A stretch of DNA of 32,000 nt from Pyrobaculum aerophilum str. IM2 (GTDB lineage Archaea > Thermoproteota > Thermoprotei > Thermoproteales > Thermoproteaceae): contig NC_003364.1 in the NCBI RefSeq assembly GCF_000007225.1, positions 480,001 to 512,000 of the forward strand. The letters are read 5' to 3'. Positions 2,500 to 22,706 of this stretch are shown here, piece by piece. The translations under genes and the position numbers were made by a program. The notes beneath the pieces are model-generated. The model was not told where the DNA came from and did not search any database. It saw only the letters and a program-made list of their open reading frames with translations. Each line of letters opens with the position of its first letter. The first letter of the stretch is position 1.

Positions 2500-2518
2500 A
2501 TAGTAACGAGTATAATAC

Positions 2519-3534: not shown

Positions 3535-3564
3535 TAAATATATATTTTCCATCACAAAAAGGCG

Positions 3565-4847: not shown

Positions 4848-5217
4848 CATAGGCAACGCCTCCCCTTATCTCAACTAATTCAACGCAACTACCTGCCGTT
4901 GCCTCGCAGCCGTCGCAGACTGCCCTCCAGTACTCTCCGCTGATTTTAACCACACCCATGGGTTTGAGATCCTCTACTACGACTCCCCTTCCCCCTAAGT
5001 ATGTATAGCCCCTGGGAGTCTCTTTAACTACCTTCACGCCTACATACACCGCCAGCGCTAAAAACGGGGCTGATACCACAAGCGCTATCCACAACGGCAC
5101 AACGCCCACGGCGTGTAACACGAGCGCCAAGACGGCTGGCAGTATAAATAAAAAAATATCGTCTAAAATCGCAACGACTATTGCGAGGCGAGACATATAA
5201 TCCCATGTACAACTCAT
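4816..5217 (-). CDS. NfeD-like membrane protein (two TM helices + C-terminal OB-like domain)
   Basis: Hydrophobic N-terminal half, then 'GRGVVVEDLKPMGVVKISGEYWRAV', which resembles the NfeD C-terminal domain. The start could instead be Met8 (nt 5196), which fits a TATA-like 'cataaatta' better. Confidence 0.55.
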   Translation of the reverse strand: MSCTWDYMSRLAIVVAILDDIFLFILPAVLALVLHAVGVVPLWIALVVSAPFLALAVYVGVKVVKETPRGYTYLGGRGVVVEDLKPMGVVKISGEYWRAVCDGCEATAGSCVELVEIRGGVAYVKPCRQGIRR

Positions 5218-5222
5218 AATTT

Positions 5223-6284
5223 ATGTTTAGAGTAGCTGTGCCGGAGGGATATACAGCCCTAGTCAGAGGACCCGCCGCCGTGAGGTGTCAAGAGTTGTGC
5301 AAAGTTTTCGGAGGGGCCTTTTTTTATTTCGTCGTATCTCCCCATAAACAATACCCAGTGGAGGGGCCAGCAATTATGGAGCTAGAAAGCGGGGCAATAA
5401 TATTAATCCGCGGAAGGGCCGTGCCTCCAGACTGGGGCCATGAGCTAGAAGGCATAGCGGCGCTTGTGGGGCCCACCGATTCGGGCAAGAGCAGCTTGTC
5501 CACCTATCTGTTAAACACACACGTGGCGAAGGGCAAGAGGGTATGTGTTATAGATGCCGACGTGGGCCAGTCAGACATAGGCCCGCCGGGCTTTGTGGCG
5601 TATAGTTGCACCTCGGCCCCAACGCCACATATCTCAGAGCTAGAGCCGCATGACGCCTATTATGTCGGAGTCACTAATTTACAAGGCGCCGAGGAGTTGT
5701 TAATAGCAGGAGTGGCGTGGGCGCTCAAAAGGGCAATGTCCCAATACCCCCACCTCATCCTCATAAACACCCCCGGCTGGACCACAGGCCGCGGGCTCCA
5801 GCTCCTAAGGGCTTTAAAAGACGCCACTGGGGCGAAAATAATAAACCTAGGCGAAAAAATTCTGCCCGGCCTCGTGGCGTCAAGGCCCGCACACGTATAC
5901 CCAAGAGGGCCTCAGGAGAGAAGGGAGTTGAGAAATTACGCATACAGAAGGCACATCAAATTGGCGGAGAGGCTACAGGCAGAGCCGGAGAAACTGGCCA
6001 ATTGTAACTGGGACAAAGGCCTGGACTGTCCCTGGGGGAGATACGTCCCAGGCGACGTGCCTGAGCCGCAGAGAAAGGGCAGAGAGCACTTAGTCCCTCC
6101 GCACTATTTGAGGCACTTATTCGCCGCCCTGTATAAAAACGGCAGGCTGGCGGGGTACGGCATAGTGGAGAAATTCGAGCCTAAAATAACGCTGTACGCC
6201 ACCACTGCTGAATTCGACGAAATATGGATAGGAAAAATACGAATTGATCCGCAGACGCTTGAAGAACTAGAACCCTTGCCGTAA
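5223..6284 (+). CDS. Clp1/Grc3-family polynucleotide 5'-hydroxyl kinase
   Basis: P-loop 'GPTDSGKSSLSTYL' followed by 'VIDADVGQSDIGPPG' (the Clp1-type DxDxGQ motif). Confidence 0.78.
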   Translation: MFRVAVPEGYTALVRGPAAVRCQELCKVFGGAFFYFVVSPHKQYPVEGPAIMELESGAIILIRGRAVPPDWGHELEGIAALVGPTDSGKSSLSTYLLNTHVAKGKRVCVIDADVGQSDIGPPGFVAYSCTSAPTPHISELEPHDAYYVGVTNLQGAEELLIAGVAWALKRAMSQYPHLILINTPGWTTGRGLQLLRALKDATGAKIINLGEKILPGLVASRPAHVYPRGPQERRELRNYAYRRHIKLAERLQAEPEKLANCNWDKGLDCPWGRYVPGDVPEPQRKGREHLVPPHYLRHLFAALYKNGRLAGYGIVEKFEPKITLYATTAEFDEIWIGKIRIDPQTLEELEPLP

Positions 6285-6448
6285 ACGAAGCATGAGAGGG
6301 AAATTACGCCTTGGGGGGATGTTAAATTGGAGAAGTCGGGGGGCGGCCAAGGAAGTAGCATTGCGCAAGGCGGCTAATTCTGCCCAACGCGTTGACAAGA
6401 TCTGCCATAAATACGCCAGTAGGGATTAGAAAATAGTGGCGGTAAGAC

Positions 6449-6542
6449 TGGCGGGCCCGGTGGGATTTCTGGGCGGCATTGCCTGAACCCACGACCTACG
6501 GCTCCGCAGGCCGCCGCTCCATCCAGGCTGAGCTACGGGCCC
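6449..6542 (-). tRNA. tRNA-Arg(GCG) with a ~16-nt intron in the T-loop; CCA encoded
   Basis: The reverse complement reads GGGCCCG-TA-GCTC-AGCCTGGATG-GAGC-G-GCGGC-CTGCGGA-GCCGT-AGGTC-GTGGG-TTCA[GGCAATGCCGCCCAGA]AAT-CCCAC-CGGGCCC-G-CCA. All stems pair. An A/T box (6564-6575) lies ~22-33 nt upstream. Confidence 0.85.
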
Positions 6543-6681
6543 CCGTTTTCACATCCTTTGTGTCTAAAAATTTTTCGATCAATCTAAGCGTGCGCCGTAA
6601 TATACTACTTCAGCGTGACATTGGGGGAACCCTCTAGTCTTGCTTAATAGTTAGTGTCTATACGCACTATTAATACTGCCC

Positions 6682-7263
6682 ATGTACGCGCCTAGCTTAA
6701 TTGGAGGATATGTCAAAACTTTTAAAAAATGCCGGGCTGGTGATCATGTGGAGTTTCCTGTTTTGAGCAAGCCTTGGAGAGACTTGGAGAAATATAGGGA
6801 GGCTAGGTTGCGGGAGGCGCGGGTTGAGATAGACCTCGCGCTTGAGTTTCTAGAGGACGGCCTTATTAGAATTGCCGCCGGTAAGGCCTTTCAAGCTTGG
6901 AAGGCTTACCTCGCCTCTCGTCTAGCTGAGAAGAGAGAGGCGTTAAAGGAGCTTTTCCCCGGCTCTAGGAGAATTAGGGCAGGGGAAGAGGAAATAGAAG
7001 TGGAAGATGTAGACGTTGTTATCGCCCTGGTGCCGACTACTCAAATGATTAAATTATCAACTGTAGTTGGCGAGGACGCAGTTGAATTCACATCCTTAGC
7101 GCTTGATCTTCACCGTTATCAATACAACGGCCCCGATCCCGAGGGCTTTTTCTCCGAGGTGCCAGACGACAGGACGGCCGCCCTCCTTATCTGCCGCATG
7201 GCTTTTAGACTGGCAGGCGATACAGATCTCTTCAAGAGGGTATGCGGCGTCTTTAAGCGATAG
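6682..7263 (+). CDS. PaREP1/PaREP8-like (HEPN-clan-like) family protein
   Basis: 193 aa. 'RIAAGKAFQAWKAYLA' and 'LDLHRYQYNG' resemble, from memory, the conserved blocks of the crenarchaeal PaREP1 family. Not verified by search. Confidence 0.55.
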   Translation: MYAPSLIGGYVKTFKKCRAGDHVEFPVLSKPWRDLEKYREARLREARVEIDLALEFLEDGLIRIAAGKAFQAWKAYLASRLAEKREALKELFPGSRRIRAGEEEIEVEDVDVVIALVPTTQMIKLSTVVGEDAVEFTSLALDLHRYQYNGPDPEGFFSEVPDDRTAALLICRMAFRLAGDTDLFKRVCGVFKR

Positions 7264-7415
7264 CGAGGAGGGCAAGTAACCGTAGACTTAAAGTGGTCAT
7301 AAAGCTCTGACTATTCTCTTATTACCTCGGCATACGGCGAAAGATCGCCGAGCTGACAAACGAATACGCCCTTGGACATGCCTTTTGGTGAGACGGGGAG
7401 TGGATAGGGAAGCCC

Positions 7416-7568
7416 ATGTCGGGTTTCGTCACGGAGAAAAAGGTTGTTTGCATAGTGGGGGGCGAGATGGCCTCTTTTTACGTATTCGATATGCCTCACG
7501 GCGTCTACCTAAGGCTTGAAATCAAACTTGTAGTCAAGGCGGCGCACAGGAGCGATGACAGCGGTTAA
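7416..7568 (+). CDS. small ORF (50 aa), first gene of a repeated two-ORF module
   Basis: MSGFVTEKKVVCIVGGEMASFYVFDMPHGVYLRLEIKLVVKAAHRSDDSG. It is below the 60-aa track cutoff. A paralogous copy at 29334-29456 differs mostly at third codon positions in the FYV.D.P.G core. Confidence 0.35.
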   Translation: MSGFVTEKKVVCIVGGEMASFYVFDMPHGVYLRLEIKLVVKAAHRSDDSG

Positions 7569-7734
7569 TGTAACGTATAGAAAAATGACACTGCCAGAGG
7601 TTTTTGAACCACCGCTGAGGTTTGGGGCGTTCTGGGGGTGCCTTACCCAAGGCGCTTTCAAAGGCATTGACGCGGTGGTGACAGAATTCCGCTACGTATT
7701 GCCTTACTCACTAGCTCAGAAAACGGCCCCGTGA
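7555..7734 (+). CDS. small ORF (59 aa), overlaps the previous ORF by 14 nt
   Basis: MTAVNVTYRKMTLPEVFEPPLRFGAFWGCLTQGAFKGIDAVVTEFRYVLPYSLAQKTAP. Its start overlaps the preceding ORF's end (ATGACAGCGGTTAA). The N-terminus has a truncated homolog at 29475-29507 (METVKVTNNI). Confidence 0.3.
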   Translation: MTAVNVTYRKMTLPEVFEPPLRFGAFWGCLTQGAFKGIDAVVTEFRYVLPYSLAQKTAP

Positions 7735-7808
7735 CGCAAAAGAGGCAATTACAATATTAGGCGTATAAATCCATGAAAAATTTAAAAACAGCCATACACA
7801 TGGATCAC

Positions 7809-7945
7809 GCCCCGGGAGAGGGGGAGCCGTGGCCAGCCGGCCACTCCAACCGGTAGTCTAGCCCGGACAAGGATGTGGGCCTTTCGAGCCCATGACCCGG
7901 GTTCAAAGGCGGAGATCCGCCGTATACATCCCGGCCGGGGCACCA
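7809..7945 (+). tRNA. tRNA-Glu(UUC) with two introns (~38 nt after the 5' acceptor strand; 21 nt in the T-loop); CCA encoded
   Basis: GCCCCGG(7809-7815)-[intron ~7816-7853, boundary ambiguous by 2 nt]-TA-GTCT-AGCCCGGACAA-GGAT-G-TGGGC-CTTTCGA-GCCCA-TGAC-CCGGG-TTCAAA[7908-7928]T-CCCGG-CCGGGGC-A-CCA. Acceptor, anticodon and T stems pair perfectly. TTTAAAAA at 7781-7788 lies 21 nt upstream, and a T-run follows. Confidence 0.72.
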
Positions 7946-7968
7946 CCATTTTTCTAATAATTCTTTAG
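7931..7968 (+). repeat. left copy of an exact 38-bp direct repeat (tRNA-Glu positions ~62-76 plus 23 nt of T-rich downstream flank)
   Basis: CCGGCCGGGGCACCACCATTTTTCTAATAATTCTTTAG is identical at 17015-17052. Confidence 0.95.
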
Positions 7969-8295
7969 CGGGAAGGTCTGCGGGCGCCTCGCCGGTGAGG
8001 CATGAAAGCCGCGAGACGGAGGACGGCGCCAGCGCCTGTCTCAACTGCGGGTTCGCTGATTTTTGAGCCAGCACAACGCCCGCGCCTCGCCCTGTCGATG
8101 CGGGGGGCGTTGCCGCCTCTCCGCTCATCCGCTGTTAGATATAGCGGAGTAGATATGTATCACTGCGCCGGAGGTTTGTAAACGGCCAGGAGCAGAGGGC
8201 TTGCTGGAGTAGGCGTTGGGGATGGCCGCGGCTTTCCCTCTTTACAGACACCACAGCACTATACTTTACAAACTCCCCGGGGGCGATCCAGAGTA

Positions 8296-8320
8296 GTTGT
8301 TTAAAAACATTAAAATTTAG
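8296..8320 (+). promoter_or_regulatory. A/T-rich promoter-like block upstream of the giant ORF
   Basis: 'ttgtttaaaaacattaaaatttag' is the only A/T-rich stretch in an otherwise G+C-rich region. TTTAAAAA (8300-8307) matches the boxes upstream of the tRNA genes. Its spacing to ATG 8323 (16 nt) is shorter than I would expect. Confidence 0.4.
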
Positions 8321-8322
8321 TT

Positions 8323-11300
8323 ATGGAGGATTGGAAAAGTCGTTTTAAACCAACGGCGGGCCACCACTGGGAGCCCCGTTGGGAGCCACGCGGCGAGACT
8401 CCCCGTTGGGAGCCGCGGTGGGAGCCCCACTTCTCCCCGCAGCCAGAGCCCAGGGAAGAACCCCGGTGGGCTCCCCAGTGGGAGCCCCAGCGGGGGCCCT
8501 CCGGCGGGGAGGCCTGGGGGCCTTCGGGAGGGGACTGGAAGCCGCGGTGGGAGCCTCCCCAGCACTACTCCGGGGAGAGCAACTGGCACGGCGGCTACTG
8601 GGGGCCGGCGGAGCTCCGCGAGCAAAGACCCCAGCCGCTTAATTTTGACTTCATCCAGCCGGCCTGGGAGGGCCCCGGGGAGGGGCGCTGGGCGGGAGAA
8701 TCTCCAGCGCCCGGGCCGCGCGAGGCCTTAACTAGGGCGGAGCGCCTGGCCCCCGCGCCGCCTCCCGGGCCTTGGGAGTCAACGCAGCTTTTAGAGGCCG
8801 GCGCCGAGCCCTCTAAACTGCCCGGCCTCTGGGAGGCTGGGCAAAGCCCCGGCGCTGGCCTTACAGCCGCCGAGGGGACGCCGGGGGGTTTCACACAGCC
8901 CGCGGAAAGGCGGGCGGGGGCGGCGGAGCTCCCAGAGGGCAACGCGGCCGGGCGCGTGGAAAAGCCGCCGGACGCATGGGCGGCCGGAGGCGCGGCGCTT
9001 AGCGAAGGCCCTGAGCCGCGGGTGGGCGACGCGGCGCTTGGAGAGGCAGGCGCAGAGGCTTGGAGGGCTCCTGGAGGGACGCACGCCCACGGCCCCGCCC
9101 AGCCGCACGTGGAGTCTGAAAGCCGCCCCTACGGGCGGCCGCCCGCCGAGACCGGGGAGTCGGCGGGCGCTGGCGGCACGCCAAAGCCCTCCGGAGGGCC
9201 GCCGGAGTTTGAGAGGGCAGTTGCGCTTAAGCCTGCGGTGGAGGCGGCGGGCGACTGGCCGCGCGGCGAGGCGGAGGCCAGAAGCGTAGAGCCCGCGGGG
9301 CCTCCCCCGGCCGTCTGGCAGATACGCGAGGCACAGCCAGCGCCTTCTCAGCAACCGCCCAGTGCAGAAGGCGTAACTCCCGCAGAGCCCCATTCCGGGC
9401 GGGAGGACGGCGTAATCCGCGCCTACCTCCAGCCCACCGTTGCGCCACACGCAGAGTCTCCTCATCCCGTCGCTGAGGCTGGAGAGGCCCTCCGCGGTCA
9501 GCACAGAGCCGAGGCGTTGCCTCCCGCCGGGCCGCACGCAGGGGATCTGCCAAAAGCCTCCTTAGAGGCGCCCAGACCCCATGGAGCTGTCTACAAAGAG
9601 CCAGAGGCTCTCCCCGCGAGAGAAGCCGCGCCGGAGATCCAGCGCGGCGAGGCGGCCAGGCCGGAGGTCCAGCGCGATATTATTGAGGCCAAGGCTCAGC
9701 GCGGCGTTGAGGCAACTGGAGAAGCCGGCAGCCCAGCTGGCCTCCACGAGGCCGCCCGGTTAGAATACGCTAAGTCAGCACTCCAGCCGCCAGCCGCGGG
9801 AGGCCTCCAGGAGATCCGCGCAGTTGAGGCGGAGAGGGGGATCCCCCAGGAGTGGAGGGCAGAGATTCCATCCCCAGCCGGAGCAGGGCAGTTGGAGGCG
9901 GCTGGCGCCCACAGCGCCGGGGCGGAGCGCCTAGCCGAGGTCTTGAGGGAGGGCTGGGGAGGGGCGGAGCCGGTTGCGGGAGCCCCCGCGGCCGGCCGGG
10001 TGTTGCCGGTCTTAGAGGGGGCCGTGAGGCCGGCGGAGCTGGCTGGAGTTGAGGCGCCGCGCCTGGTAGAGGCCGAAGCTCCGGCGTATATAGAGCCGGC
10101 CAGAGGAGCGGCTGGGGAGCTTAGGTCAGAAATGGCTAGGTTTAGAGAGGCGGTTGAGGCCTATTTAAAAGGGGCTCTGGACCAGGACTTGTTAAAGGCT
10201 GAGATGGCCAAGGCGTGGGAGGCTTGGGATGAGGCGTTGCGCAAATCGCCGGCCGCGGCCTCCGGCGACCCGGTGCTGGCGGTGTTGGCAGAGGCCTTTA
10301 GAGAGAGGGTGGAGAGGGCGAGGGGGGATAGGGAGGCAGTCGCCGAGCTGGCCAAACTCGCCGAGCTCATGCGGCTCTGGCCTCCGGAGGCCGTGGCCGA
10401 CGCCTTTCGCCACGGGGCAGAGGTCCTTACGGCGGCTGAGGCCGCGGGGTTGAGCGCAGTAGAGCCCTCCCGCGCGGCGGAGCGGGCAGAGGTGGAGGCG
10501 GGGCGTGGGGGAGCCGCCGGGGGACTGGCGGGGGCGGGGAGGCCTCTTCAAATTACTCCGGAGTTGCGCGAGGCCGCTGAGGGGAGGCTTGCTGGGCGGC
10601 GGGCTGTGGGCCGGGGCGCAGTCCGCCCGCCCGCCGCCTTCCGTTTTGAGGCAACCCCTGAGAGAGTGGCCGCGGCTTTGGGAGAGGCCCCCGCGGGCGC
10701 TTACGTGTTGGCGGCCATGGGGAGGGAGCTGGCCGAGGCCGTGGGTAAGAGGCTGGCAGCGCTGAGGGAGGGAGTGTGGAGTCTGTTAGTGGACATAGCG
10801 CCCTACTCCCCGGCGAAGCTCCCCGTGGGGCCTCCCGGCATATTCCACGTCCCCTATAAGAGCCAGCTGGCGGGCTACAGCGACGTGGCCGAGTTTTACA
10901 AAAGCCCGGCAGGCTCCAGGCACTTGGCCCTGGCTGAGGCGCTGGCCCACTTGGCGGCGCACGCCGCCTTGGAGAGGCTGGCCTATAAGCTAGAGGGGAT
11001 CGCGGCGTATATAATCTCCGCGAGGGCGGCGCTGGAGTTGAAGAGGGCCGCGGAGGCGGCCGCCAGGGCTGGGGCGCATTACGCAGAGGTGACGAAAATA
11101 AGCGCCGAGGAGCAGTACAGAGAGGCTGTGCGGAAGGCGGCAGGGGCCTTGCCCGCGGCAGGCCGGCGCGCGGCAGCGGAGCTGGCCGAGGAGCTGGCCA
11201 AACAAATAGGCGGGGCCGCCCGCCTGCTGAAGGCCGGGAGGGACTTGGAAAAGGCCTTGGAGAAAGTGGTAGAGGCCTTGAGGCTGGAGCGCCTCTATGA

Positions 11301-14300
11301 AATACACGGGGACAAGAGGCTTTTACAGGCGGCTTGGGCGCGCGCGGTGTATAAGGCGCTGACGGAGGGTCTGAGGGCCCCTCCCATCAGCGCTCTGGAC
11401 CTCCCAGCCGGGCGCCCGGCGGATCCCGTGGAGGGGGCCGTGGCCTCTGCGGCCAGGCGCTGGCTCGCCGAGAGAGTCGCGGCCCTCAAGGCGGCCGCCA
11501 GGCTCTCCAGCCCCGAGTCAGCCCCGCCCTCCCTCAGGCATTTGGCGAGGGGGCTAGGCGACTTCAAGGCCGAGGCCAGGCGTTTTGTGGAGGAGGCCAA
11601 AAGGGCCGCCGCCTTCTCCCCGGCCGTCAAGGCGGAGCTACTCTCAGCGGCTAAGAGGCTCGCCGCCGCTAGCGGCGTGGAGAAGTACGCTGGGGTTAAG
11701 CTGTTGCAAGAACTGGGGAGAGTCCAGCCGGGCGGTGCCGACTTCTACTCCCTGCCCAAGAGGCTGAGGGAGCTCTCGGGCCTATCCGAGGGCGACTTGA
11801 TTAAAGCCGGCTACTTCGACGAGGCGCTGAGGGCAGTTTACAGCTCGTTGCGCCTGCCGTTTAAGAGGGAGGACCCCAGGCGCGTCGCCGAGGCCCTGGC
11901 CGGGAGGGCCGCGGCGGTGGCCAAAAAGCTAGGCGTAGACCCCTCCCCTCTGTTAAAAGCGCTGGGAGAGCTGAAGGAGGCCTCCGTTGGGGAGGCCCCC
12001 GCCAGAGCCGCGGGGGCGGGGGAGGCGCTGGTCAAATTCGCCGCAGAGGCGGTGAGGGCGCTCGCAGAGAGGAGGGGCGTTAACGGCGGAGACGCCCTAT
12101 ACGCCCTGGCCAGAGCCGTGGCGAGAGGGCTGGGCGCCGGGAGGGAGCTGGCGGCAGAGGCGGTGGCGGAGCTGGTCAAGAGGGGCTCTCCGCTAGCCGC
12201 GAGGAGCGCTAAGACCGCCGAGGCCCTCTCAGGGAGGCTTTTGGCAATACCGGCTGAGGGCTATGCGGAGGGGAGGAGGACTTTTATATACATCTTGCTA
12301 CACCCCTCTCAGCTGGGACAGTTGAAAGAGGTCTTGGACAGAGTGGCCGCGGAGCTGGCCTTTAAGGGATACGCCGCCGCCCCGCGGCCGGCTGAAGCGG
12401 CGTTGTTACTGCCGGAGGTAGAGCTGAGGAGAGGCCTGGTCTACTTAAGGGGAAATCCCTTCGGCGAGTTGAAGAGACTGGCCGAGGCCTTGGTGAGGGA
12501 TGCCGGAAGAGGGGAGGCCGCCGCCTCTGTTGAGAGGCTACGCAGATACGCCCTATATCTGGCGAAGAGGTATGGCCTTGATTACAGCCCGCTTGAGGCC
12601 GGGAGGGAAGAGGCGGCTATTGGCTTCGCGGCAGTGAGGGAGGCGGTGGGGGCTCTTAAGCGCAGGGGCCGCTGGGGTATTTCCCTCAGCATCCCCCTAG
12701 AGCTTATGGAGGGGGCGGCGCTGGCCCTGGGGGTGGAGAGGGACGAGGTAATTGACGTGGAGAGAGCCCTCTACTGGATTTCAAGCTCTGAGCTGGTGCC
12801 CCCATTCGCCTCTAAGAGGGCCTACGCCGCCGCCGTTAGGCTATACGCCGAAATAGCCGGGGTGAGCGAGGGGGAGGTCTGGGAGCATGTGTACGAGCGG
12901 CTGTCCAACACCCTCGGCCCCCATTACATTAGAGAGCTGGAGAAATTCGCCAGGGAGAAGCTTGTGGAGGCATGGAGGCTGGGCGCCGCTGGCAGAAAGG
13001 CGGGGGCGCCCGGCGGGGCCGTGGACAACGCCCTCGGCCGGGCTGCAGGCCCGCCCCCGGCCTCAAACGCTGGGGCTACCGGCGGCCTTATCCCCCCTGG
13101 GGAGAGGGAGGTGGGCGCCGCTTTGTGGCTGGCGAGGTTTTTCGGGGGGCTTGAGGCGGCTAATTACACAGAGGTGAGCCGCGGGCTTGACGGAGCCGCT
13201 GAGCGAGTGCTTGAGGAAGTCAAGGCGAGGGCGCGGGGGGCGTGGTACTGGGAGGCGGCCGCTGAGGCGGCGAGGAGAGTGGTTGAGGTTTTGGCCACGG
13301 CGGCTAGGTCTAGGGCGGCTTTGGAATACGCCTATTTGGCTCTCATTGGCGGGCGGCATGACGGCGATGTCCTATACGGCGAGTACCTCAGGCGCGCCCC
13401 TGAGGAGGCCAGGGGGCTCGTGCTGGAGGCAGGCATTAAATTCGCCCAGCTGGCCAGAGGTATCTGGGAGAGGGCGGAGAGGGCCTTAGGCGAAGTGGAG
13501 GAGGGGCTTGGCCGCGTTGGCGATTTGCGCGACGCGATTTCAACGGTAGCGCAACCCATGGCGGCCGCAATCGCCTACGCAGAGGCCGGACGTTTTAAAG
13601 AGGCAGTTGAGGCGGCGAGGGAGGCAGCCCGGCGTATATACGAGGCGGCCCGGGAGGCCTTTGAAAAAGCCAAGATAACGCTAGAGCGCATATACGAAAT
13701 AATAGTAGAGGCAGTGGCGAGAGTCCTTGACTACATAAAAGCGCATTGGTTTATACTGGCCGCCGCGGCGGCCGGGCTAATCGGCTGGGCCTTTGCACAG
13801 CAATTGGACTACACGCTTTGGCAAGACCACGTGGCGAAATTCGCGCCGCTGATAGCAGGAGTACCAGCATTTAAGGAGTTCAAGACAGCCCTAAGCGACA
13901 GCGACCCCGTGCTCAAGGCGGCTGAGGAGGCGTTAAAGCACATGTCTGAAGACGCGGTTAAGAGGCTGTTTGAAGAGGCCAAAAGGGCTGTGGGACAGAG
14001 CTCAAAGCCGTGGTCTGATTTGAGGAAGGTAGCTAGGGATGTGGAAAGGTACGGCAAAGAGGGCGTTAGGCCGGAGCACGCCGCTGTGGCGTGGGTCCTC
14101 CTTGAGGCCGGGCTGAGGGAGCTGGGCGATGTGAGAGACAAGGCGCTGTCGGCGCTTAGAGAGGCGGAGGAGAAATTGTCAAGGGGCGAGGAGGTAGAAA
14201 TGTCAACAAAAGAGCTGTCGGAATTTGTGAGAAGGGCGCGGGACGTGGCGCACCGCCTTGAGCTGTTGTTTGAAGATCTTGTGAAAAACGTTGAAAAGCA

Positions 14301-16680
14301 CAGCGAAAAGGAGATGAGAAAAGCCCTCGCCGTAACGGAATTGGCCGGGGAGCTGGCTGAGGCGTCTAAAGCTGACTTCGGCGAGCTAGGCGGCGCCACT
14401 CTCGCCGACAAGGTCGTCGCGTTTTTTGAAAGCCTGGCAGAGGGCACGGCGTGGAGCCGCGTTGTGATAAACGCCGCGGAAAGGGGAGAGGCGTACGGGG
14501 CGTTAATCAGAACGCCGAGAGGCGCATTAGACAAATACGGCGCGGGCAGGGAAAAGGCAAAGGGCGAGGAGGGGCGGTTAGGCGCTGTTATCTCCCGTCT
14601 CGCCTACTGGCTCGCCGAGAGAGGCGTTGACAAGGCCGTGGTTAGGCGCGAAGGCGATAAGGTGGAAGTCGTGGTAGACGACGAGACTGTGGCGGAAGTA
14701 AGGATTAGGGCGATCAAGATGGAAGATGAGAGGGAAAGCGTTATCTTCAATGCGTGGGGCAAGTGGGTAGAGGAGGAGGGCAAAAAGGCCGCGGAGCTTG
14801 CGGCGAAAATAGAGCCTAGCAAAGCGAAAAAACACCAAATTTACGCACTGTTGGCCACAGACGGAAGCTATGAGGCAGAGGGCGAGGTCAATGCCAGCAC
14901 CACCTCCGTTCTGCAAGCCGCGTTGTACAGGCGGTTTGGAATGGAGGTGTCACGTACGGAGGGAGGCAATTTGACTGAAGACGGCCTCAAGCCCCAACTA
15001 GCGGCCAAGTTCTACAAGGAGAGCGGCGGGGAGAAGGTGGTGGAAATGATTCGACGCGATTTAGAGGAGGGTTTGAGGACGTTACTGGGTAACGCCAAAC
15101 TAAGGGAGGAGCTTAGAGAAAAGGCGTTGAAGCTCCTCAGCGAGATGAAAATCTCGGTGCAAGGCGCCGACGTTACCGATGAGGGCAGACAGAGGGTAGA
15201 GGAGGCGAGGAGGAAGATTGAGGAGCGTATAAAGAGATTCTTGACGGATCTTCGCCTTGGTGAAAACGGCTCCGTCTGCCTTGTGAATTGCCAATTCGGC
15301 GAGACGGCGCTGACGTATAAGCACGAGCCGTACGCCCGCGTAATTGCGCCGTTAGTGCACTATATTGCCTCAAACGCGCCGGAGGAGGTCATGAGGTTCC
15401 TGGCATATGCAGTGCTTTTCGACGGACACGTGAGGACAGGCGAGATATCCCTCACGCTTGGCAATTTCCGTGTGGCGTCAAGACGCCTCCCGCTTGATGT
15501 TTACGACAAAATCGCTCTGTATATAATCCTCGCCGCGAAATATGGCGTAGGGGTTAATGGAGTGTATGTAAGAGGGCGCGAGATCAGGCTGTATTTCGAC
15601 GCAGAATACGCCACTGGGGTGTTCGCGACGGCGTGGACTGAGCTCTCGCGGCTGTGGAGATTCGGCATGGAGCATGGCCTATACGCCGATCACATTTTTA
15701 ATAAGCTAGATAACATTAGAAGGTACGTGGAGGAGTACGCTAACAAGCTGAGGATTGAATATGAACTTTACAGCCCGCAGGGCGTAGACCCGTGGGTGGA
15801 GGTGAGGTTTAAGGACGATAGGGGAAATGAGATAGCCCACATAAACATTAGGTGGAATGGCGAAAAACTACGCGCCGAATTCACTGGCGCTAAAGAAAAG
15901 GCAGAAAGACTGGCCTCAATACTAAACGCGCTGGGCGCCAGCGTAGAGGCGAAGGAGCTTGGTGGGGAGTGGCGCGTACAGCTTACAACTGACTCCATCA
16001 CCGCAATACGCCGTAAGGAGTGGCTGGAGGCGGTTAAGGCCTTAGTGGAGGAGTTGCACAGAAGGGGAATGGTAAACGAGAGGCAAAGGGATAGATTGCT
16101 GACTGAAATAAACGCCGGGCCCAACGTAGTCGAAATTGCAAACGTGGAGCTCAGCGTTAGGGCGCCGACAACTAACAAATTCAAGCGGCTGGAGATAGTG
16201 TACCAGCCGAGATCTGCAAAAGCCTTTGACGCCGCCGTAAATGCTCTTAGGGACGCTGGCTTTGTTGAGGGAGTACACTTCACGGCAAAAAAGCCGGAAG
16301 GGGGCAAACTTGGCCACGTATACATTAAGTTGCCTGCTGGCCTTTGGCGCCTTGTGGAGCTGAGGAGGCAGGGTGTCGACTGGGCCGACAAGGCGCTTAG
16401 GCGCCTCGAGGAGATTGCAAAGGCGAGAGGTTTCTACGACCTTCTGGAGGAGTACTTAAGGCCGGCTATGGAGGCAGAAACAGTGGACCCGAGAGGGTTA
16501 GTGGCTGAAGATGTCGAGAGAGGAATGAGGGCTGTAGTGAAAGACGTTAAGGCGACGTGGGAGGGCGGTAAGCCTAGAGTTGTGGTGGAGTACGAGGTAG
16601 GCGGGGATGCTAAATCCTTCTTTTTCACTTGGCGCGTAAAAACGGGAGGGGGGGGGGGTTATAGCAGGAGTGAAGCTTAA
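8323..16680 (+). CDS. giant hypothetical protein, 2,785 aa (repeat/low-complexity N-terminal two thirds, one TM-like helix, ordinary-composition C-terminal third)
   Basis: A single frame is uninterrupted for 8.36 kb, including ~3 kb of only moderate G+C where chance ORFs of this length are implausible. No catalytic motif recognised. It may be related to the large 'PaREP2'-type ORFs of Pyrobaculum (memory only). Confidence 0.75.
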   Translation: MEDWKSRFKPTAGHHWEPRWEPRGETPRWEPRWEPHFSPQPEPREEPRWAPQWEPQRGPSGGEAWGPSGGDWKPRWEPPQHYSGESNWHGGYWGPAELREQRPQPLNFDFIQPAWEGPGEGRWAGESPAPGPREALTRAERLAPAPPPGPWESTQLLEAGAEPSKLPGLWEAGQSPGAGLTAAEGTPGGFTQPAERRAGAAELPEGNAAGRVEKPPDAWAAGGAALSEGPEPRVGDAALGEAGAEAWRAPGGTHAHGPAQPHVESESRPYGRPPAETGESAGAGGTPKPSGGPPEFERAVALKPAVEAAGDWPRGEAEARSVEPAGPPPAVWQIREAQPAPSQQPPSAEGVTPAEPHSGREDGVIRAYLQPTVAPHAESPHPVAEAGEALRGQHRAEALPPAGPHAGDLPKASLEAPRPHGAVYKEPEALPAREAAPEIQRGEAARPEVQRDIIEAKAQRGVEATGEAGSPAGLHEAARLEYAKSALQPPAAGGLQEIRAVEAERGIPQEWRAEIPSPAGAGQLEAAGAHSAGAERLAEVLREGWGGAEPVAGAPAAGRVLPVLEGAVRPAELAGVEAPRLVEAEAPAYIEPARGAAGELRSEMARFREAVEAYLKGALDQDLLKAEMAKAWEAWDEALRKSPAAASGDPVLAVLAEAFRERVERARGDREAVAELAKLAELMRLWPPEAVADAFRHGAEVLTAAEAAGLSAVEPSRAAERAEVEAGRGGAAGGLAGAGRPLQITPELREAAEGRLAGRRAVGRGAVRPPAAFRFEATPERVAAALGEAPAGAYVLAAMGRELAEAVGKRLAALREGVWSLLVDIAPYSPAKLPVGPPGIFHVPYKSQLAGYSDVAEFYKSPAGSRHLALAEALAHLAAHAALERLAYKLEGIAAYIISARAALELKRAAEAAARAGAHYAEVTKISAEEQYREAVRKAAGALPAAGRRAAAELAEELAKQIGGAARLLKAGRDLEKALEKVVEALRLERLYEIHGDKRLLQAAWARAVYKALTEGLRAPPISALDLPAGRPADPVEGAVASAARRWLAERVAALKAAARLSSPESAPPSLRHLARGLGDFKAEARRFVEEAKRAAAFSPAVKAELLSAAKRLAAASGVEKYAGVKLLQELGRVQPGGADFYSLPKRLRELSGLSEGDLIKAGYFDEALRAVYSSLRLPFKREDPRRVAEALAGRAAAVAKKLGVDPSPLLKALGELKEASVGEAPARAAGAGEALVKFAAEAVRALAERRGVNGGDALYALARAVARGLGAGRELAAEAVAELVKRGSPLAARSAKTAEALSGRLLAIPAEGYAEGRRTFIYILLHPSQLGQLKEVLDRVAAELAFKGYAAAPRPAEAALLLPEVELRRGLVYLRGNPFGELKRLAEALVRDAGRGEAAASVERLRRYALYLAKRYGLDYSPLEAGREEAAIGFAAVREAVGALKRRGRWGISLSIPLELMEGAALALGVERDEVIDVERALYWISSSELVPPFASKRAYAAAVRLYAEIAGVSEGEVWEHVYERLSNTLGPHYIRELEKFAREKLVEAWRLGAAGRKAGAPGGAVDNALGRAAGPPPASNAGATGGLIPPGEREVGAALWLARFFGGLEAANYTEVSRGLDGAAERVLEEVKARARGAWYWEAAAEAARRVVEVLATAARSRAALEYAYLALIGGRHDGDVLYGEYLRRAPEEARGLVLEAGIKFAQLARGIWERAERALGEVEEGLGRVGDLRDAISTVAQPMAAAIAYAEAGRFKEAVEAAREAARRIYEAAREAFEKAKITLERIYEIIVEAVARVLDYIKAHWFILAAAAAGLIGWAFAQQLDYTLWQDHVAKFAPLIAGVPAFKEFKTALSDSDPVLKAAEEALKHMSEDAVKRLFEEAKRAVGQSSKPWSDLRKVARDVERYGKEGVRPEHAAVAWVLLEAGLRELGDVRDKALSALREAEEKLSRGEEVEMSTKELSEFVRRARDVAHRLELLFEDLVKNVEKHSEKEMRKALAVTELAGELAEASKADFGELGGATLADKVVAFFESLAEGTAWSRVVINAAERGEAYGALIRTPRGALDKYGAGREKAKGEEGRLGAVISRLAYWLAERGVDKAVVRREGDKVEVVVDDETVAEVRIRAIKMEDERESVIFNAWGKWVEEEGKKAAELAAKIEPSKAKKHQIYALLATDGSYEAEGEVNASTTSVLQAALYRRFGMEVSRTEGGNLTEDGLKPQLAAKFYKESGGEKVVEMIRRDLEEGLRTLLGNAKLREELREKALKLLSEMKISVQGADVTDEGRQRVEEARRKIEERIKRFLTDLRLGENGSVCLVNCQFGETALTYKHEPYARVIAPLVHYIASNAPEEVMRFLAYAVLFDGHVRTGEISLTLGNFRVASRRLPLDVYDKIALYIILAAKYGVGVNGVYVRGREIRLYFDAEYATGVFATAWTELSRLWRFGMEHGLYADHIFNKLDNIRRYVEEYANKLRIEYELYSPQGVDPWVEVRFKDDRGNEIAHINIRWNGEKLRAEFTGAKEKAERLASILNALGASVEAKELGGEWRVQLTTDSITAIRRKEWLEAVKALVEELHRRGMVNERQRDRLLTEINAGPNVVEIANVELSVRAPTTNKFKRLEIVYQPRSAKAFDAAVNALRDAGFVEGVHFTAKKPEGGKLGHVYIKLPAGLWRLVELRRQGVDWADKALRRLEEIAKARGFYDLLEEYLRPAMEAETVDPRGLVAEDVERGMRAVVKDVKATWEGGKPRVVVEYEVGGDAKSFFFTWRVKTGGGGGYSRSEA
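8368..8560 (+). repeat. imperfect 12-nt tandem repeats TGGGAGCCNCGN encoding W-E-P-R units
   Basis: tgggagccccgt / tgggagccacgc / tgggagccgcgg / tgggagccccac / tgggctccccag / tgggagccccag / tggaagccgcgg / tgggagcctccc. The protein reads HHWEPRWEPRGETPRWEPRWEPH...WAPQWEPQ...WKPRWEPP. Confidence 0.85.
16648..16658 (+). repeat. G11 homopolymer at the 3' end of the giant ORF
   Basis: 11 consecutive G by direct count. The longest other G/C run I noticed in the window is 7 (31134-31140). Confidence 0.95.
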
Positions 16681-16855
16681 CGACGAGAAGGCCCTAGTGT
16701 TGGCCGCTCTCCTCGGCGATGGGGCAATAAGGGAGAAGAGGGGGAGCATAACGCTAACCGCAAGACATCTACTCGCCCTGGCCAAGTACAAGGGGGCAGG
16801 CTGGGAGTTGTTGAGGTGGTACGCCGAGGTGATGAAAGAGTCGGCAGAGCTTTAA
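16670..16855 (+). pseudogene. out-of-frame continuation of the giant ORF (frame open from 16640); would be fused by a 1-nt contraction of the G11 run or a +1 frameshift
   Basis: The second frame opens at 16640, runs through the G-run and reads ...GGGVIAGVKLNDEKALVLAALLGDGAIREKRGSITLTARH...SAEL. It has no independent promoter or ATG (only GTG at 16670). Confidence 0.5.
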
Positions 16856-16918
16856 GCCCACTTTAAATCTACGGTTAGGAGAGAAAATCTAAAAACACGA
16901 CGGAAAATATGGAGTGAG

Positions 16919-17029
16919 GCGCCGGTTGCTCAGCCCGGCCGGAGTTCCCAGGGGCAAAGCCTCGCGTAAGCCTCATAAGCGGGTCCCGGGTTCAGGCATT
17001 GTCGCCTAGAATTACCGGCCGGGGCACCA
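16919..17029 (+). tRNA. tRNA-Met/Ile2(CAU)-like sequence with two introns; aberrant fold, possibly chimeric or a pseudogene
   Basis: GCGCCGG-TT-GCTC-AGCCCGGCCG-GAGT-T-CCC[intron 16950-16969]GC-CTCATAA-GCGGG-TC-CCGGG-TTCA[16995-17010]ATT-ACCGG-CCGGGGC-A-CCA. Problems are a G3:G70 mismatch, a G53:A61 mismatch and only 2 nt of variable region. The 3' 15 nt belong to the 38-bp repeat. A promoter-like 'tctaaaaa' lies at 16888-16895. Confidence 0.45.
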
Positions 17030-17052
17030 CCATTTTTCTAATAATTCTTTAG
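17015..17052 (+). repeat. right copy of the exact 38-bp direct repeat
   Basis: Identical to 7931-7968. Flanks diverge immediately upstream (c vs a) and downstream (c vs t), with only patchy similarity beyond. Confidence 0.95.
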
Positions 17053-17135
17053 TGGAGGTGTCGTAGAGTCTGCGCTGCGGCAAGTATTGTTAAAGGCTGT
17101 GTGCCGCGTTTTTATATCGGCGAGTTGCGTGGCGC

Positions 17136-17468
17136 TTAGTGTTTAGGCGTTCCTTGTGCGTGTGCATCCTCTTCGCATTCGAATTTTAAAGTGCCTTTAG
17201 TCAAGGCGCGGTAAACGACACACTTTTCCTCTTGGCCTGTACATTTAGCTTTACATTTAATCTCGTAGCCCTCTATTTCACATTCCATTTCAAAGGGCCG
17301 TCCTTCCATGTCTATATAACGTATGCCTATGCCGTAGGCCAGCGCCGCTAGCATGAGATCTATTGGCCTTAAGCCAGTGATGTCTATCTCTCTATCTCCT
17401 ACAATCATTCTCTCGGGCGTGGCTAATATTTTTATCGAATTGCCCCTCTTGTGCATAACAAGGCGCAC
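17136..17468 (-). CDS. small OsmC/Ohr-like protein
   Basis: 110 aa. 'GLRPIDLMLAALAYGIG' resembles the OsmC-family P-x-E-L-L-L-A-A-L-A core. It overlaps the upstream gene's end by 37 nt if Met1 is used; Met at 17408 would remove the overlap. Confidence 0.5.
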   Translation of the reverse strand: MRLVMHKRGNSIKILATPERMIVGDREIDITGLRPIDLMLAALAYGIGIRYIDMEGRPFEMECEIEGYEIKCKAKCTGQEEKCVVYRALTKGTLKFECEEDAHAQGTPKH

Positions 17469-18328
17469 GCCCCGCAGCCCGTACAGTTATTTAGTATCTG
17501 CGGCACGCCGAGGGAGGTTGGAACAATTGCTGGACACTTGGTTTTAAGACAATCGCCGCATTTATCGCATAAATCTGGATCCACTACATATTTCTTTTTC
17601 TCGTAGGCGTATCCAGTAATGCGGCTTTGGAGGAAATTACACACATCGCCCGGCTCATCTAGAATTACGACATACCCCCCCATCTCGGCCACTTTGGCCG
17701 TGAGGAAGTCGCGGGTTTTGGCTACTGCTATTACAGGACCCGCCTTATAGCCCCCAATTAAAATGCCCAGGGCTATGGCGGCGGCTTTAAGCGGGGGCAA
17801 GTAGACGTCTACTATTTCTGCCACTTCTGCCGGCTCGTGCCACGTCGGAATCACCATGTAATCTGGCCGCGAGGCGGCGCTTGGGGAGAGCCTGACGTCA
17901 GAGACTACTACTGGCACCGCGTTTAACATTTTGAGTTGTGTATAGAGACAAGACATTAGGGGGAGGAGCGGATGTCCTACCTCCACCTTCTCGCCTCCCC
18001 GCGCCCATCTCCACGGCGACATATAGTGTTTATTAAATGTGGAGACTCTGCGGTTTGCAGTCGCGGGCCTAGGCCCCTCGTAGCCCACAGGAATTGAGTA
18101 TATTTCAGAATAATCGACTGCCTTTTCGGCGTCGTTAAAACACGGCAAATCGGGGGGACACGGCGTAATGAGGAGGGCCCCCCACACTGCGCCTTCAACT
18201 GCCCTTAGAGCCTCTCTGCTGGGCCGCGCCTCTACTAATACTTGTCTAAATGTTATTGAGAGGCCGACGCCGATTGCGAATCTTTCGTCGTCGGTATAAG
18301 AAGGGTCGCTTATAATGAATTCAACCAC
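17432..18328 (-). CDS. uncharacterised protein with C-terminal 2x[4Fe-4S] ferredoxin-type domain
   Basis: 298 aa. The C-terminus 'CDKCGDCLKTKCPAI...CTGCGACALLCTRGAI' contains two CxxCxxCxxxC(P) motifs. I do not recognise the ~240-aa N-terminal part. Confidence 0.65.
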   Translation of the reverse strand: MVEFIISDPSYTDDERFAIGVGLSITFRQVLVEARPSREALRAVEGAVWGALLITPCPPDLPCFNDAEKAVDYSEIYSIPVGYEGPRPATANRRVSTFNKHYMSPWRWARGGEKVEVGHPLLPLMSCLYTQLKMLNAVPVVVSDVRLSPSAASRPDYMVIPTWHEPAEVAEIVDVYLPPLKAAAIALGILIGGYKAGPVIAVAKTRDFLTAKVAEMGGYVVILDEPGDVCNFLQSRITGYAYEKKKYVVDPDLCDKCGDCLKTKCPAIVPTSLGVPQILNNCTGCGACALLCTRGAIR

Positions 18329-18340
18329 AGTGCGGGGCTT

Positions 18341-18742
18341 TCACCTTATTTTAAGTTTAATCACGAGTTTTTTGAGCGCATTCTTTTCGCCCGGAAAGTG
18401 GTCCAGCGGCTTTGGACCGTTTATTTGAACCCAGAGGCACTTCTCCGAGAGGTAGATCTCTCCCGTTTTTAAATTTAAGACGAGGGGGTACATTTTACAT
18501 GACAGCGGTTTTTTCTCATGTGTAGTACACTTCCCCTTGTAGAAGGGACACCACCCCTCGATAATCCACTTGTAAAGCTTTACTCCGTTGTACTCGCCGT
18601 ATTCTTTAAAAGTGAGCTTAACGCCTATATTCTCGGCCTCCTTTAAAAGAGTTGGTATTTCTTCTTCCAGGACTACTGGCATTTCATCTATACTGTTAAA
18701 TTTACAACAATCAGCGGGGCAGCCCACGGGACATGTGAACAC
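18341..18742 (-). CDS. YkgJ/UPF0153-like Cys-cluster (putative Zn/Fe-chelating) protein
   Basis: 133 aa. It has an N-terminal 'CPVGCPADCC' cluster plus 'WCPFYKGKCTTHEKKPLSCKMYP'. First gene of a three-gene minus-strand operon. Confidence 0.5.
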   Translation of the reverse strand: MFTCPVGCPADCCKFNSIDEMPVVLEEEIPTLLKEAENIGVKLTFKEYGEYNGVKLYKWIIEGWCPFYKGKCTTHEKKPLSCKMYPLVLNLKTGEIYLSEKCLWVQINGPKPLDHFPGEKNALKKLVIKLKIR

Positions 18743-19072
18743 ATGTGGGTATTGCGTAGCTTATTTAAACCCTATGGCGCTTCAAATAAGCAAATTATAT
18801 TCTCGATATTTGTCAATATATTTATATCTCAAACCCTCTTTGCTATTTGTAAATTTAATTGTATAAAGGGTAGTCTTTAAATATGTCCTTAATCTCAGTG
18901 GTTCCAGTAAAATAACTAGAAAGGCATTTAAAATAAATTAAAGAAAAATTTAAAAATGTTTTCATCTTCATGATGCCATGAAGAAGGAGAAGAAAGAGGA
19001 GAAAAAGGAGGAGAAAAAGAAATAATAGAGTAGGGCGCTAAGATTTTTAAAACCCCCTTTCTTTTTCCCTCT
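18743..19072. promoter_or_regulatory. unusually long, very A/T-rich divergent intergenic region
   Basis: About 330 bp between divergent operons. It contains the hairpin CTTCATG-atgc-CATGAAG (18967-18984) and a purine tract (GAA/GAG)n at 18978-19025. Confidence 0.5.
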
Positions 19073-19384
19073 ATGGTTAAGGTCATCGATATCGGCAGAG
19101 TTGTAGTTAAAGTTCTGGGGAGGGAGGCCGGCAGGAAGGCCGTTGTTGTGGATATCGTAGATGAAAATTACGTGGTAATCACAGGGCCTAAGCCCATTAC
19201 TGGCGTAAAGAGGAGGAGAGTAAATATTAACCACATTGAGCCTACTGACAAAAAAATTGACATTAAGAGAGGGGCGTCTGACGACGAAGTCGCCAAGGCC
19301 ATAGAGGCAGCGGGGCTTGTTGAGTACATGCGCGAAAGGGTAAAGCCAAGCTTCGTGGGTATTACTAAGGCTGAGACTAAGTGA
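19073..19384 (+). CDS. rpl14e: 50S ribosomal protein L14e
   Basis: 103 aa. '[32 protein letters not shown]' is a KOW-type motif typical of archaeal L14e. Confidence 0.85.
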
Positions 19385-20382: not shown

Positions 20383-20454
20383 GGGTATAATACAGAGCGC
20401 TACGGCGGCTTAACGGGCAGTAAAAACTTAAAAGTAAATGATGTTATAATAAAC

Positions 20455-21239: not shown

Positions 21240-21259
21240 ATACTCAAACACGTAGGGAC

Positions 21260-22647: not shown

Positions 22648-22706
22648 AGACGTATACTTAGTCCTTTTTACGGGTTGGCCATTTTTAAAAAAGAGCCCAC
22701 AAGTGT

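Follow-up and report, generated by a model that had tools for sequence, protein, structure and literature searches.

A strain-variable paREP2b island with 38-bp direct repeats, an empty site and an ancestral allele at a tRNA-Glu gene of Pyrobaculum aerophilum

Introduction

How does a piece of DNA come to lie between two exact copies of the 3' part of a tRNA gene when no integrase gene adjoins either copy? This question is raised by a locus in the hyperthermophilic archaeon Pyrobaculum aerophilum IM2, in which 38-bp direct repeats, the first of which starts within the gene for tRNA-Glu(UUC), bracket a giant paREP2b gene. We have analysed this locus in a 32,000-nucleotide stretch of the chromosome (NC_003364.1, positions 480,001 to 512,000), which we call the window and in whose numbering coordinates are given. 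A first-pass annotation of the sequence had proposed that the repeats reflect site-specific integration into the tRNA gene, and that the DNA between them may be a captured element reduced to a single gene or, alternatively, may have arisen by recombination between tRNA genes.

Crenarchaeal tRNA genes are known hot spots of integration and rearrangement (PMC3218864), and "gene capture" elements integrated in them have been described (She et al. 2001/2002, as cited in PMC3218864). PaRep2b-type elements have been termed "putative transposons" (PMC3558965).

Results

Boundaries of the island

The 38-mer CCGGCCGGGGCACCACCATTTTTCTAATAATTCTTTAG is present in two exact plus-strand copies in the window, at 7931-7968 and 17015-17052, as the first-pass annotation had it; the window contains no further match at up to three mismatches, and none was obtained in 100 shuffles. 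The identity stretches to 41 nt when one mismatch is allowed. The left, attL-like repeat (7931-7968) covers tRNA positions 62-73, CCA and 23 more nucleotides, its 15 tRNA nucleotides being T-stem positions 62-65, the 3' strand of the acceptor stem, the discriminator A and CCA. Its assignment to the end of tRNA-Glu(UUC) is borne out by a cloverleaf that folds once two inserts are removed. The right, attR-like repeat (17015-17052) begins with the 15 nt that end a tRNA-like gene.

The strain-variable island that these repeats delimit is 9,084 bp long (7969-17052, plus strand, or equivalently, given the repeat, 7931-17014). Between the repeats lie a 354-nt leader, an open reading frame (ORF) at 8323-16680, its frameshifted tail up to 16856 and the tRNA-like gene; except for the leader, this is the content already listed in the first-pass annotation. 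Downstream, 12 nt (TGGAGGTGTCGT, 17053-17064) separate the right repeat from the sequence in common with an ancestral-type allele, which starts at 17065. These 12 nt are present in the empty-site allele and absent from the ancestral-type contig L004 (L numbers denote the loci compared), and the first bases of the island after the 38-mer, CGGGAAGGTCTGCG, loosely resemble the TGGAGGTGTCGT that follows the resident copy. On the 5' side of the 38-mer, the tRNA-like gene and tRNA-Glu have a common T arm and a diverged T-loop insert. With diverged homology on both of its sides, the 38-mer is thus a perfect core inside decayed homology.

The island is not a transposon in the insertion sequence (IS) sense. 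Its ends are not inverted repeats, no transposase domain was found in a profile search of the giant gene, and the 38-bp repeat is far longer than the target duplication of an IS element or DNA transposon and includes tRNA sequence.

Three alleles in one species

Allele classes were drawn from contigs that encode the same flanking proteins. The occupied, window-type allele (H3) is found in L001-L003, L015, L018, L020 and L034-L039, each of which matches the window at 99.7% identity or more; it is present in at least eight independent contigs or assemblies. This recurrence of the arrangement at tRNA-Glu in several independent assemblies shows that it is not an assembly artefact.

An empty site, in which tRNA-Glu is followed by the sequence from 17053 onward, had been predicted, and it was found with one 38-mer in L032 and L033, which belong to two P. 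aerophilum assemblies (GCA_003400025.1 and GCA_003400145.1). Positions 1-5796 of L032 align with window 2170-7968 and positions 5759-11396 with window 17015-22655, the two alignments overlapping by exactly the 38-mer, and L033 behaves alike; the flanks are about 99% identical. The order in this allele (H2) is tRNA-Glu with its T-loop insert, the single 38-mer, TGGAGGTGTCGT and the right flank. These alignments make 7969-17052 a precise presence/absence polymorphism of 9,084 bp and the repeats its true edges. In both contigs, a ferredoxin-like gene is called as two to three fragments (L032 6176-7069; L033 5654-6549), which suggests frameshifts or indel-prone empty-site assemblies.

In the ancestral-type allele (H1; L004 and L010), PaREP1 is directly followed by tRNA-Glu on the opposite strand. 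This tRNA-Glu gene has no T-loop insert, no encoded CCA and the trailer CTTGCC, and its promoter side joins window 17065 onward; L004 5873-6059 corresponds to window 7907-7721 inverted, at 98.9% identity. The same orientation is found in P. islandicum and in three Pyrobaculum metagenome-assembled genomes (MAGs), none of which has PaRep genes there, which indicates that H1 is the ancestral arrangement. Relative to H1, the tRNA cassette of the window is inverted and has acquired a T-loop intron, an encoded CCA and a new T-rich trailer. Past the tRNA, the repeat has 26 nt that are missing from H1 (L004, L010 and the outgroup species) and are therefore not the original chromosomal flank. This applies also to the 23 nt that the first-pass annotation had described as the T-rich downstream flank of the tRNA. 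The ancestral state, the rearranged state and the rearranged state with the island coexist within one species.

The left flank of the window differs from that of L004 at only 2 of 5,108 nt. On the right, 31 of 1,874 positions distinguish IM2 from the H1 strain, and 21 of these differences lie within 500 nt of the junction (17065-17565). The H2 strain is uniformly about 1-2.6% diverged, yet has the derived tRNA arrangement. These strain relationships at the flanks show exchange of the locus between lineages. The cluster of single-nucleotide polymorphisms fits allele import or gene conversion at the site, and looks like a tract of recombination or gene conversion with its end at the locus.

It should be noted that the contigs of L008, L016, L017, L019 and L021-L024 end exactly 30 nt into the 38-mer (window 7960 or 17023). 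A break of a k=31 assembly graph at a two-copy repeat is expected, and such short-read contigs cannot separate the occupied from the empty allele.

An older PaRep2 unit at the same tRNA end

Left of the tRNA-Glu cassette, the window has a second segment that is absent from the ancestral-type allele (X, 7278-7719), the remnant of an older PaRep2a/PaRep2b unit. Its first 58 nt (7278-7335) are the reverse-complemented 3' end of PaRep2b, seen as an inverted repeat between 7277-7335 and 16819-16877 (83% complementary). Positions 7416-7568 encode the C-terminal 50 aa of PaRep2a (Pfam E=6.8e-14, profile positions 72-122 of 122); the remainder of X consists of the C-terminal part of PaRep2a and the region downstream of it, with X positions 69-422 (window ~7332-7685) matching the P. 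aerophilum PaRep2a region L012 9717-9361 at 71%. The usual P. aerophilum unit is a divergent PaRep2a/PaRep2b pair, and X is a unit of this kind from which a large internal part has been lost. A second decayed PaRep2a fragment (29308-29494, 66% identical to 7389-7574) lies upstream of an M32 carboxypeptidase gene (29526-31001).

L004 joins window 7277 straight to the tRNA 3' end. In the window, the PaRep2b end of X meets the native trailer CTTGCC exactly at the old 3' boundary of tRNA-Glu: CTTGCC is preceded by GGGGCA in H1 and, on the other strand, by CTACGGTTA in the window. As X abuts the original tRNA 3' boundary, this tRNA end has been hit twice. An earlier PaRep2 unit, oriented relative to the tRNA as the island is today, would have inserted directly behind the discriminator base of tRNA-Glu. 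It would then have lost part by deletion, and the 261-bp tRNA cassette would have flipped. The 26 nt after the tRNA in H2 and H3 are most simply seen as the end of this older unit rather than chromosome, a view supported by the likeness of CGGGAAGGTCTGCG to TGGAGGTGTCGT.

The tRNA-Glu gene and the defective tRNA-like gene

ARAGORN detected no tRNA gene in the window, and the minus-strand gene at 6452-6542 was the single one detected by Rfam. The tRNA-Glu(UUC) gene escapes both because it is interrupted twice; after removal of 7829-7849 and 7908-7928, the joined segments 7826-7828, 7850-7907 and 7929-7945 form a perfect cloverleaf. The cassette (7721-7945, plus strand, inverted relative to the ancestral-type allele) has a TTTAAAAAC box at 7781-7789, exons at 7826-7828, 7850-7907 and 7929-7942, an encoded CCA at 7943-7945, an intron at position 3/4 (7829-7849) and an insert or intron in the T loop at position 59/60 (7908-7928). 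An alignment of six Pyrobaculum tRNA-Glu genes showed that the 3/4 intron is kept in all six and that, among these, only the allele of the window has the 21-nt T-loop insert. Folding of the T arm gave a T stem, a loop and an intron hairpin, and no strict bulge-helix-bulge (BHB) motif could be assigned from the folding of the T-loop intron.

The tRNA-like gene at the right end (Z, 16919-17033, plus strand) has a CAU anticodon, inserts in the anticodon stem (16950-16969) and in the T loop (~16998-17013), and a TCTAAAAAC box at 16888-16896. No perfect fold came out of an exhaustive two-insert removal scan of 16900-17045 with ARAGORN; the tRNA-Met(CAU)-like folds that it gave are all imperfect, with a mismatch of G3 and G70, a variable region of 3 nt and a T stem of 4 bp. 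The acceptor 5' strand of Z, GCGCCGG, requires CCGGCGC, and the gene carries the tRNA-Glu strand CCGGGGC instead. These features mark Z as a defective or chimeric gene. Its T-loop insert, GGCATTGTCGCCTAGA, resembles the 16-nt T-loop intron, GGCAATGCCGCCCAGA, of the tRNA-Arg(GCG) gene at 6452-6542 (minus strand), and the cassette of this tRNA-Arg has opposite orientations in the MAG locus L029 and in P. aerophilum (L004 and the window). A literature text search with the tRNA sequence strings gave no match.

An A/T box, T[TC]TAAAAAC, is found upstream of tRNA-Glu (7781-7789), of the ATG of the giant gene (8300-8308) and of the tRNA-like gene (16888-16896); having this box in common, the three genes may each have their own promoter.

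The giant paREP2b gene

The giant gene extends over 8323-16856 on the plus strand. Its ORF of 2,785 aa (8323-16680; AAL63076.1) matches the Pfam family PF07775 (PaRep2b) at E=1.5e-135, with 453 bits against a curated cut-off of 20.4, and is the exact member "paREP2b [P. aerophilum IM2]", 2,785 aa, of a protein cluster. Its sequence places the gene firmly in the PaRep2b family, in line with its existing annotation as paREP2b in IM2. A run of 11-12 G (~16640-16650) contains one extra G, which shifts the frame and leaves the rest of the C-terminus as an out-of-frame tail of 58 codons that extends to 16856; this G, at ~16648, is the sole indel relative to L015, which is 99.98% identical and has an unbroken gene of 2,843 aa. 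In the non-coding leader (7969-8322, plus strand), the ATG is preceded by an A/T-rich TTTAAAAAC box (8300-8308), and the small ORFs of the leader gave no Pfam match at E<=1.

The rise in G+C from 7969 onward, noted from the outset, is real: the flanks have a G+C fraction of 0.50, the leader (7969-8322) 0.585, 8323-13422 0.69 and 13423-16856 0.56. It is mostly due to the N-terminal 1,700 codons, which encode 21% Ala, besides Gly, Pro and Arg. This N-terminal part (8323-13422) is of low complexity, rich in Ala, Glu, Gly, Arg and Pro, and has short WEPR-like repeats in tandem at its start. No homologue of the N-terminal part or of the middle 1,061 aa came up in either of two very large protein searches, to which compositional bias may contribute. 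The conserved C-terminal 1,085 aa have homologues in Pyrobaculum only, and the protein is 62-79% identical to other Pyrobaculum PaRep2b proteins over about 1,000 aa. A search of genome contigs with exact 8-residue patterns of the C-terminus gave one unrelated bacterial locus only, and exact-protein look-ups of the window ORF, P0064 and P0020 returned no record. A hydrophobic helix, HWFILAAAAAGLIGWAFAQQL (~13740-13800), precedes the conserved core and is kept in all family members.

Among the neighbouring genes of the window are those for a Clp1-like protein (AAL63072.1), a ferredoxin-like protein (PAE0857) and PaREP1 (6682-7263).

Search for an integrase and for a viral or plasmid origin

No integrase, transposase or recombinase domain was found in the island or within ~10 kb on either side of it, among the window genes and in the loci spanning the region, and the ORFs of 7270-8330, the giant gene and the neighbouring genes gave no match to recombinase families of Pfam or NCBIfam. 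The first-pass statement that no integrase, transposase or integrase fragment is seen next to the repeats thus holds at the level of profile searches within ~10 kb. Searches with tblastn gave no match of the paREP2b cargo in plasmid or phage collections, and PADLOC gave no match. The cargo is a Pyrobaculum chromosomal repeat family and not a reduced virus or plasmid. The proposal of a captured element reduced to one gene is not upheld, given this chromosomal cargo, the lack of integrase fragments and the lack of a plasmid or phage match.

Compared with tRNA-targeting integrative elements, the island has repeats over the tRNA 3' part and an empty site with one repeat copy; it has neither an integrase nor viral or plasmid cargo. 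Hence, it behaves like a tRNA-targeting integrated element but fails membership of the integrase type. As to integration into tRNA-Glu, the part of the proposal that stands is that the repeats bound a precise present/absent island; a single integration event does not, given the older PaRep2 remnant, the inverted tRNA cassette and the T-loop intron that was gained.

A possible LAGLIDADG-like core in PaRep2b

In an AlphaFold2 model, the conserved PaRep2b core (14740-15702, plus strand) is predicted to consist of two alpha-beta-beta-alpha-beta-beta-alpha units (pLDDT 90.7, pTM 0.90). Its helices (H) and strands (E) are H31-39/E42-45/E49-54/H57-65/E69-79/E82-91/H97-117 in the first unit and H214-228/E229-232/E235-241/H254-268/E272-278/E281-286/H288-311 in the second. 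The first helices end in ALLATDG (Asp codon 14860-14862) and AVLFDG (Asp codon 15421-15423), and T40, D41, D228 and G229 are invariant columns in 18 homologues. The core thus has the topology of LAGLIDADG proteins, namely two units, in each of which the first helix terminates at a conserved acidic residue followed by Gly. The Foldseek matches of both models in the PDB are headed by LAGLIDADG enzymes, I-LtrI, I-PanMI, I-OnuI, PI-PfuI, I-Tsp061I and I-DmoI among them, and those among the viral models of BFVD are headed by intein-bearing proteins and annotated LAGLIDADG endonucleases. The PaRep2b core may therefore be LAGLIDADG-like, which we take as a lead only.

Discussion

Proposed movement of the cassette by reciprocal crossover

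The reading that we favour, with confidence that is evenly balanced, is that the 38-bp repeats are the two junctions of a mobile or deletable cassette of 9,084 bp and that they reflect reciprocal crossover by host recombination, possibly stimulated by PaRep2b. Gain or loss of the cassette would have taken one reciprocal (Campbell-type) crossover inside the 38 bp of identity. One partner would be the resident junction, where the 3' end of tRNA-Glu meets the terminus of the older PaRep2 unit; the other would be the junction of the cassette itself, where the 3' end of the tRNA-like gene is joined to the left end of the cassette. The crossover would be made by host homologous recombination with no dedicated integrase, and it is the lack of an integrase in cis that favours this route across the 38 bp. 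PaRep2b itself may stimulate the process by making a double-strand break, a proposal based on the double LAGLIDADG-like fold that is modelled for the conserved core.

An exact core, one copy of it in the empty allele and hybrid flanks are the product of a single reciprocal crossover, whether by an integrase or by homologous recombination. As with tRNA-targeting elements, the cassette replaces the 3' flank of the tRNA and leaves the tRNA undamaged. One-step integration into the ancestral allele was also considered and was rejected: the flanks would be wrongly oriented, and L004 has neither copy of the 26-nt trailer.

Several observations weigh against a crossover of this kind. Deletion between the repeats would give an identical empty site, so that gain and loss look alike, and the empty allele is represented by two closely related assemblies with a fragmented Fer4 gene beside it. 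All 14 occurrences of the 38-mer in the fetched loci are in attL-, attR- or attB-type context, and none of these contig sequences has the attP-type junction of a circle. Metagenome and viral contig collections gave no match to either the 26-mer trailer or the 5' body of the tRNA-like gene, the scanned metagenome collection being evidently one without samples that carry the locus. As regards a break by PaRep2b, the top Foldseek matches have E values of 0.008-0.2, probabilities of at most 0.99 and TM scores of about 0.4, with unrelated folds interleaved, and the LAGLIDADG similarity never reaches E<=0.001; HMMER tests for LAGLIDADG membership were negative, and hhalign gave no signal against sequences of I-CreI and I-DmoI entered by hand.

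The other PaRep2b loci also speak against it. None of L012, L014 and L040 has a tRNA there, L012 and L014 have no flanking direct repeats, and L040 has neither the 26-mer nor the 38-mer. The use of a tRNA end is therefore a property of this locus or of a subfamily, and not of the family as a whole. The idea that the tRNA-like gene plus 38-mer is a generic PaRep2b end was also dropped, as the closest PaRep2b loci lose homology at the stop codon.

Two further loci may be described here. L040 (5877-14454; GCA_003400145.1, NMUF01000004.1), from a strain that lacks the island, has another PaRep2b at a different locus, with about 2,850 aa in three separate ORFs; its relationship to the window gene is distant, with 60-77% identity in patches only, and it adjoins 14 small same-strand ORFs and a UPF0175/DUF3368 pair. 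In L027 (Pyrobaculum sp. 3827-6, GCA_025641885.1; reverse complement, 2718-5760), tRNA-Glu is, in an independent case, inverted relative to the ancestral orientation. Homology stops there exactly after the discriminator base and is followed by about 2.85 kb of unrelated DNA with ORFs of 154 and 439 aa, neither of which has a Pfam match. Its far end has a 24-nt 3' fragment of tRNA-Arg(GCG), with a possible 5' piece on the other strand.

Alternative explanations

The possibility, raised at the outset, that the repeats come from recombination involving tRNA genes is viable; the right-hand tRNA-like gene looks chimeric. In its full form, this explanation holds that there was no recent insertion: the island would be the older state in this lineage, the repeats would come from recombination or gene conversion between tRNA-Glu and the neighbouring CAU tRNA with its near-identical 3' end, and the "empty" strains would have deleted 9 kb through homologous recombination of the two repeats. 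We regard it as unlikely, although several observations agree with it. The pairing of GCGCCGG with CCGGGGC in the tRNA-like gene has the look of a chimera, small tRNA cassettes flip often in Pyrobaculum (tRNA-Arg in L029 versus L004; tRNA-Glu in sp. 3827-6), a deletion between 38-bp repeats yields exactly the empty site observed, and far more contigs have the occupied than the empty allele. However, it leaves unexplained why a 9-kb paREP2b gene lies between two tRNA 3' ends, and the ancestral arrangement is found in five other genomes without it. Moreover, a perfect 38-mer within far more diverged homology is more readily explained by a crossover or core site than by an old duplication.

Another alternative is classical gene capture. 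A virus or plasmid would have integrated into tRNA-Glu by means of a tyrosine integrase (of the SSV or pNOB8 type), with the 38-mer as att core, would have lost or split its integrase, and would have decayed to a single gene. The overlap of the direct repeats with the tRNA 3' end and an exact empty site with one copy of the core agree with this, and a core of 38 bp is within the size range of archaeal att sites. The standing of crenarchaeal tRNA genes as hot spots of integration and rearrangement (PMC3218864) also speaks for it. Nevertheless, we find this origin doubtful: no integrase or fragment of one was found adjoining the repeats or within ~10 kb, the cargo is a multi-copy chromosomal one with no plasmid or phage match, the 26-mer and the tRNA-like body are unmatched in viral contigs, and the core runs 26 nt past the tRNA into sequence that the ancestral allele lacks.

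Homing proper, in which an active LAGLIDADG-type PaRep2b would cut the empty allele near the 3' region of tRNA-Glu and the cassette would be copied in by repair with an occupied allele as template, with the repeats incidental, is very unlikely, since the LAGLIDADG-like double domain with its invariant Asp-Gly, the divergence tract concentrated beside the junction and the two PaRep2 insertions at one tRNA end are set against sub-significant fold matches, negative sequence-profile tests, a 38-bp duplication that homing neither requires nor creates, and other PaRep2b loci that are not beside tRNAs.

Comparison with known systems

The crossover cassette that we favour resembles four known systems, each in part. 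As far as gene capture elements are described in PMC3218864, the likeness lies in insertion at the tRNA 3' end, direct repeats with the tRNA 3' part, a tRNA that stays intact, strain variability and an empty site with one repeat copy. Unlike these elements, as described there, the island lacks viral and plasmid genes as well as an integrase, whole or split, its repeat runs 26 nt past the tRNA into element-like sequence rather than native flank, and its distal repeat is joined to a whole, promoter-bearing, defective tRNA-like gene. With the rearranged (split, inverted and permuted) tRNA genes of crenarchaea (Chan, Cozen & Lowe 2011, PMC3218864), the locus shares a synteny break exactly at the tRNA boundary, an inverted tRNA cassette and partial or chimeric tRNA fragments nearby, whereas here tRNA-Glu remains contiguous and three states exist in one species. 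This setting matches the tendency of crenarchaeal tRNA genes to act as break and integration points (PMC3218864).

Like the PaRep2b family (PF07775) in general, the island marks a strain- and species-variable region. Compared with the usual PaRep2b, the window copy is 2.4 times as long, has an orphan low-complexity N-terminus of 1,700 aa and lacks the divergent PaRep2a partner; it also has 38-bp boundaries and an empty site, whereas the other PaRep2b loci examined do not. The modelled PaRep2b core finds its best structural matches in free-standing LAGLIDADG homing endonucleases and in archaeal intron-encoded enzymes such as I-DmoI and I-Tsp061I, which it resembles in the double alpha-beta-beta-alpha-beta-beta-alpha topology with helices ending in a conserved Asp-Gly, and the selfish, patchy presence of paREP2b next to a conserved RNA gene recalls LAGLIDADG genes. 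In contrast to these enzymes, the PaRep2b core has no Pfam or HMM membership and reaches a TM score of only ~0.4, has about 190 aa of extra helices between its halves, and forms part of a larger protein (1,100-2,800 aa) that also has a conserved hydrophobic helix.

Conclusions

In summary, much of the strain-variable DNA of Pyrobaculum consists of paREP2b genes, which have so far been called "putative transposons" without defined ends, target or enzyme. The locus described here, which is in the type strain IM2, is the first concrete paREP2b anatomy found, with exact boundaries, an empty site, an ancestral allele and a tRNA 3' target that was used again. As far as checked, the defined boundaries, the series of three alleles and the LAGLIDADG-like lead are new.

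The LAGLIDADG-like core provides a testable candidate activity for paREP2b. We give little credence to the wider proposal that PaRep2b is an unrecognised, highly diverged family of LAGLIDADG-type homing nucleases, some members of which would attack the 3' regions of tRNA genes, with the T-loop intron, the encoded CCA and the new trailer, which would have arisen in tRNA-Glu along with the PaRep2 insertion, as footprint or immunity. By analogy with "collaborative homing", the intron would break the nuclease target, a part of the proposal that seems just as improbable. If true, this would link a resident selfish nuclease family to the exceptional proliferation of non-canonical tRNA introns in Thermoproteales and to their often flipped tRNA cassettes. 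Should the nuclease lead be borne out, it would give an experimental handle on how integrase-less islands move in hyperthermophilic archaea, and on why the tRNA genes of Thermoproteales gather introns and rearrangements.

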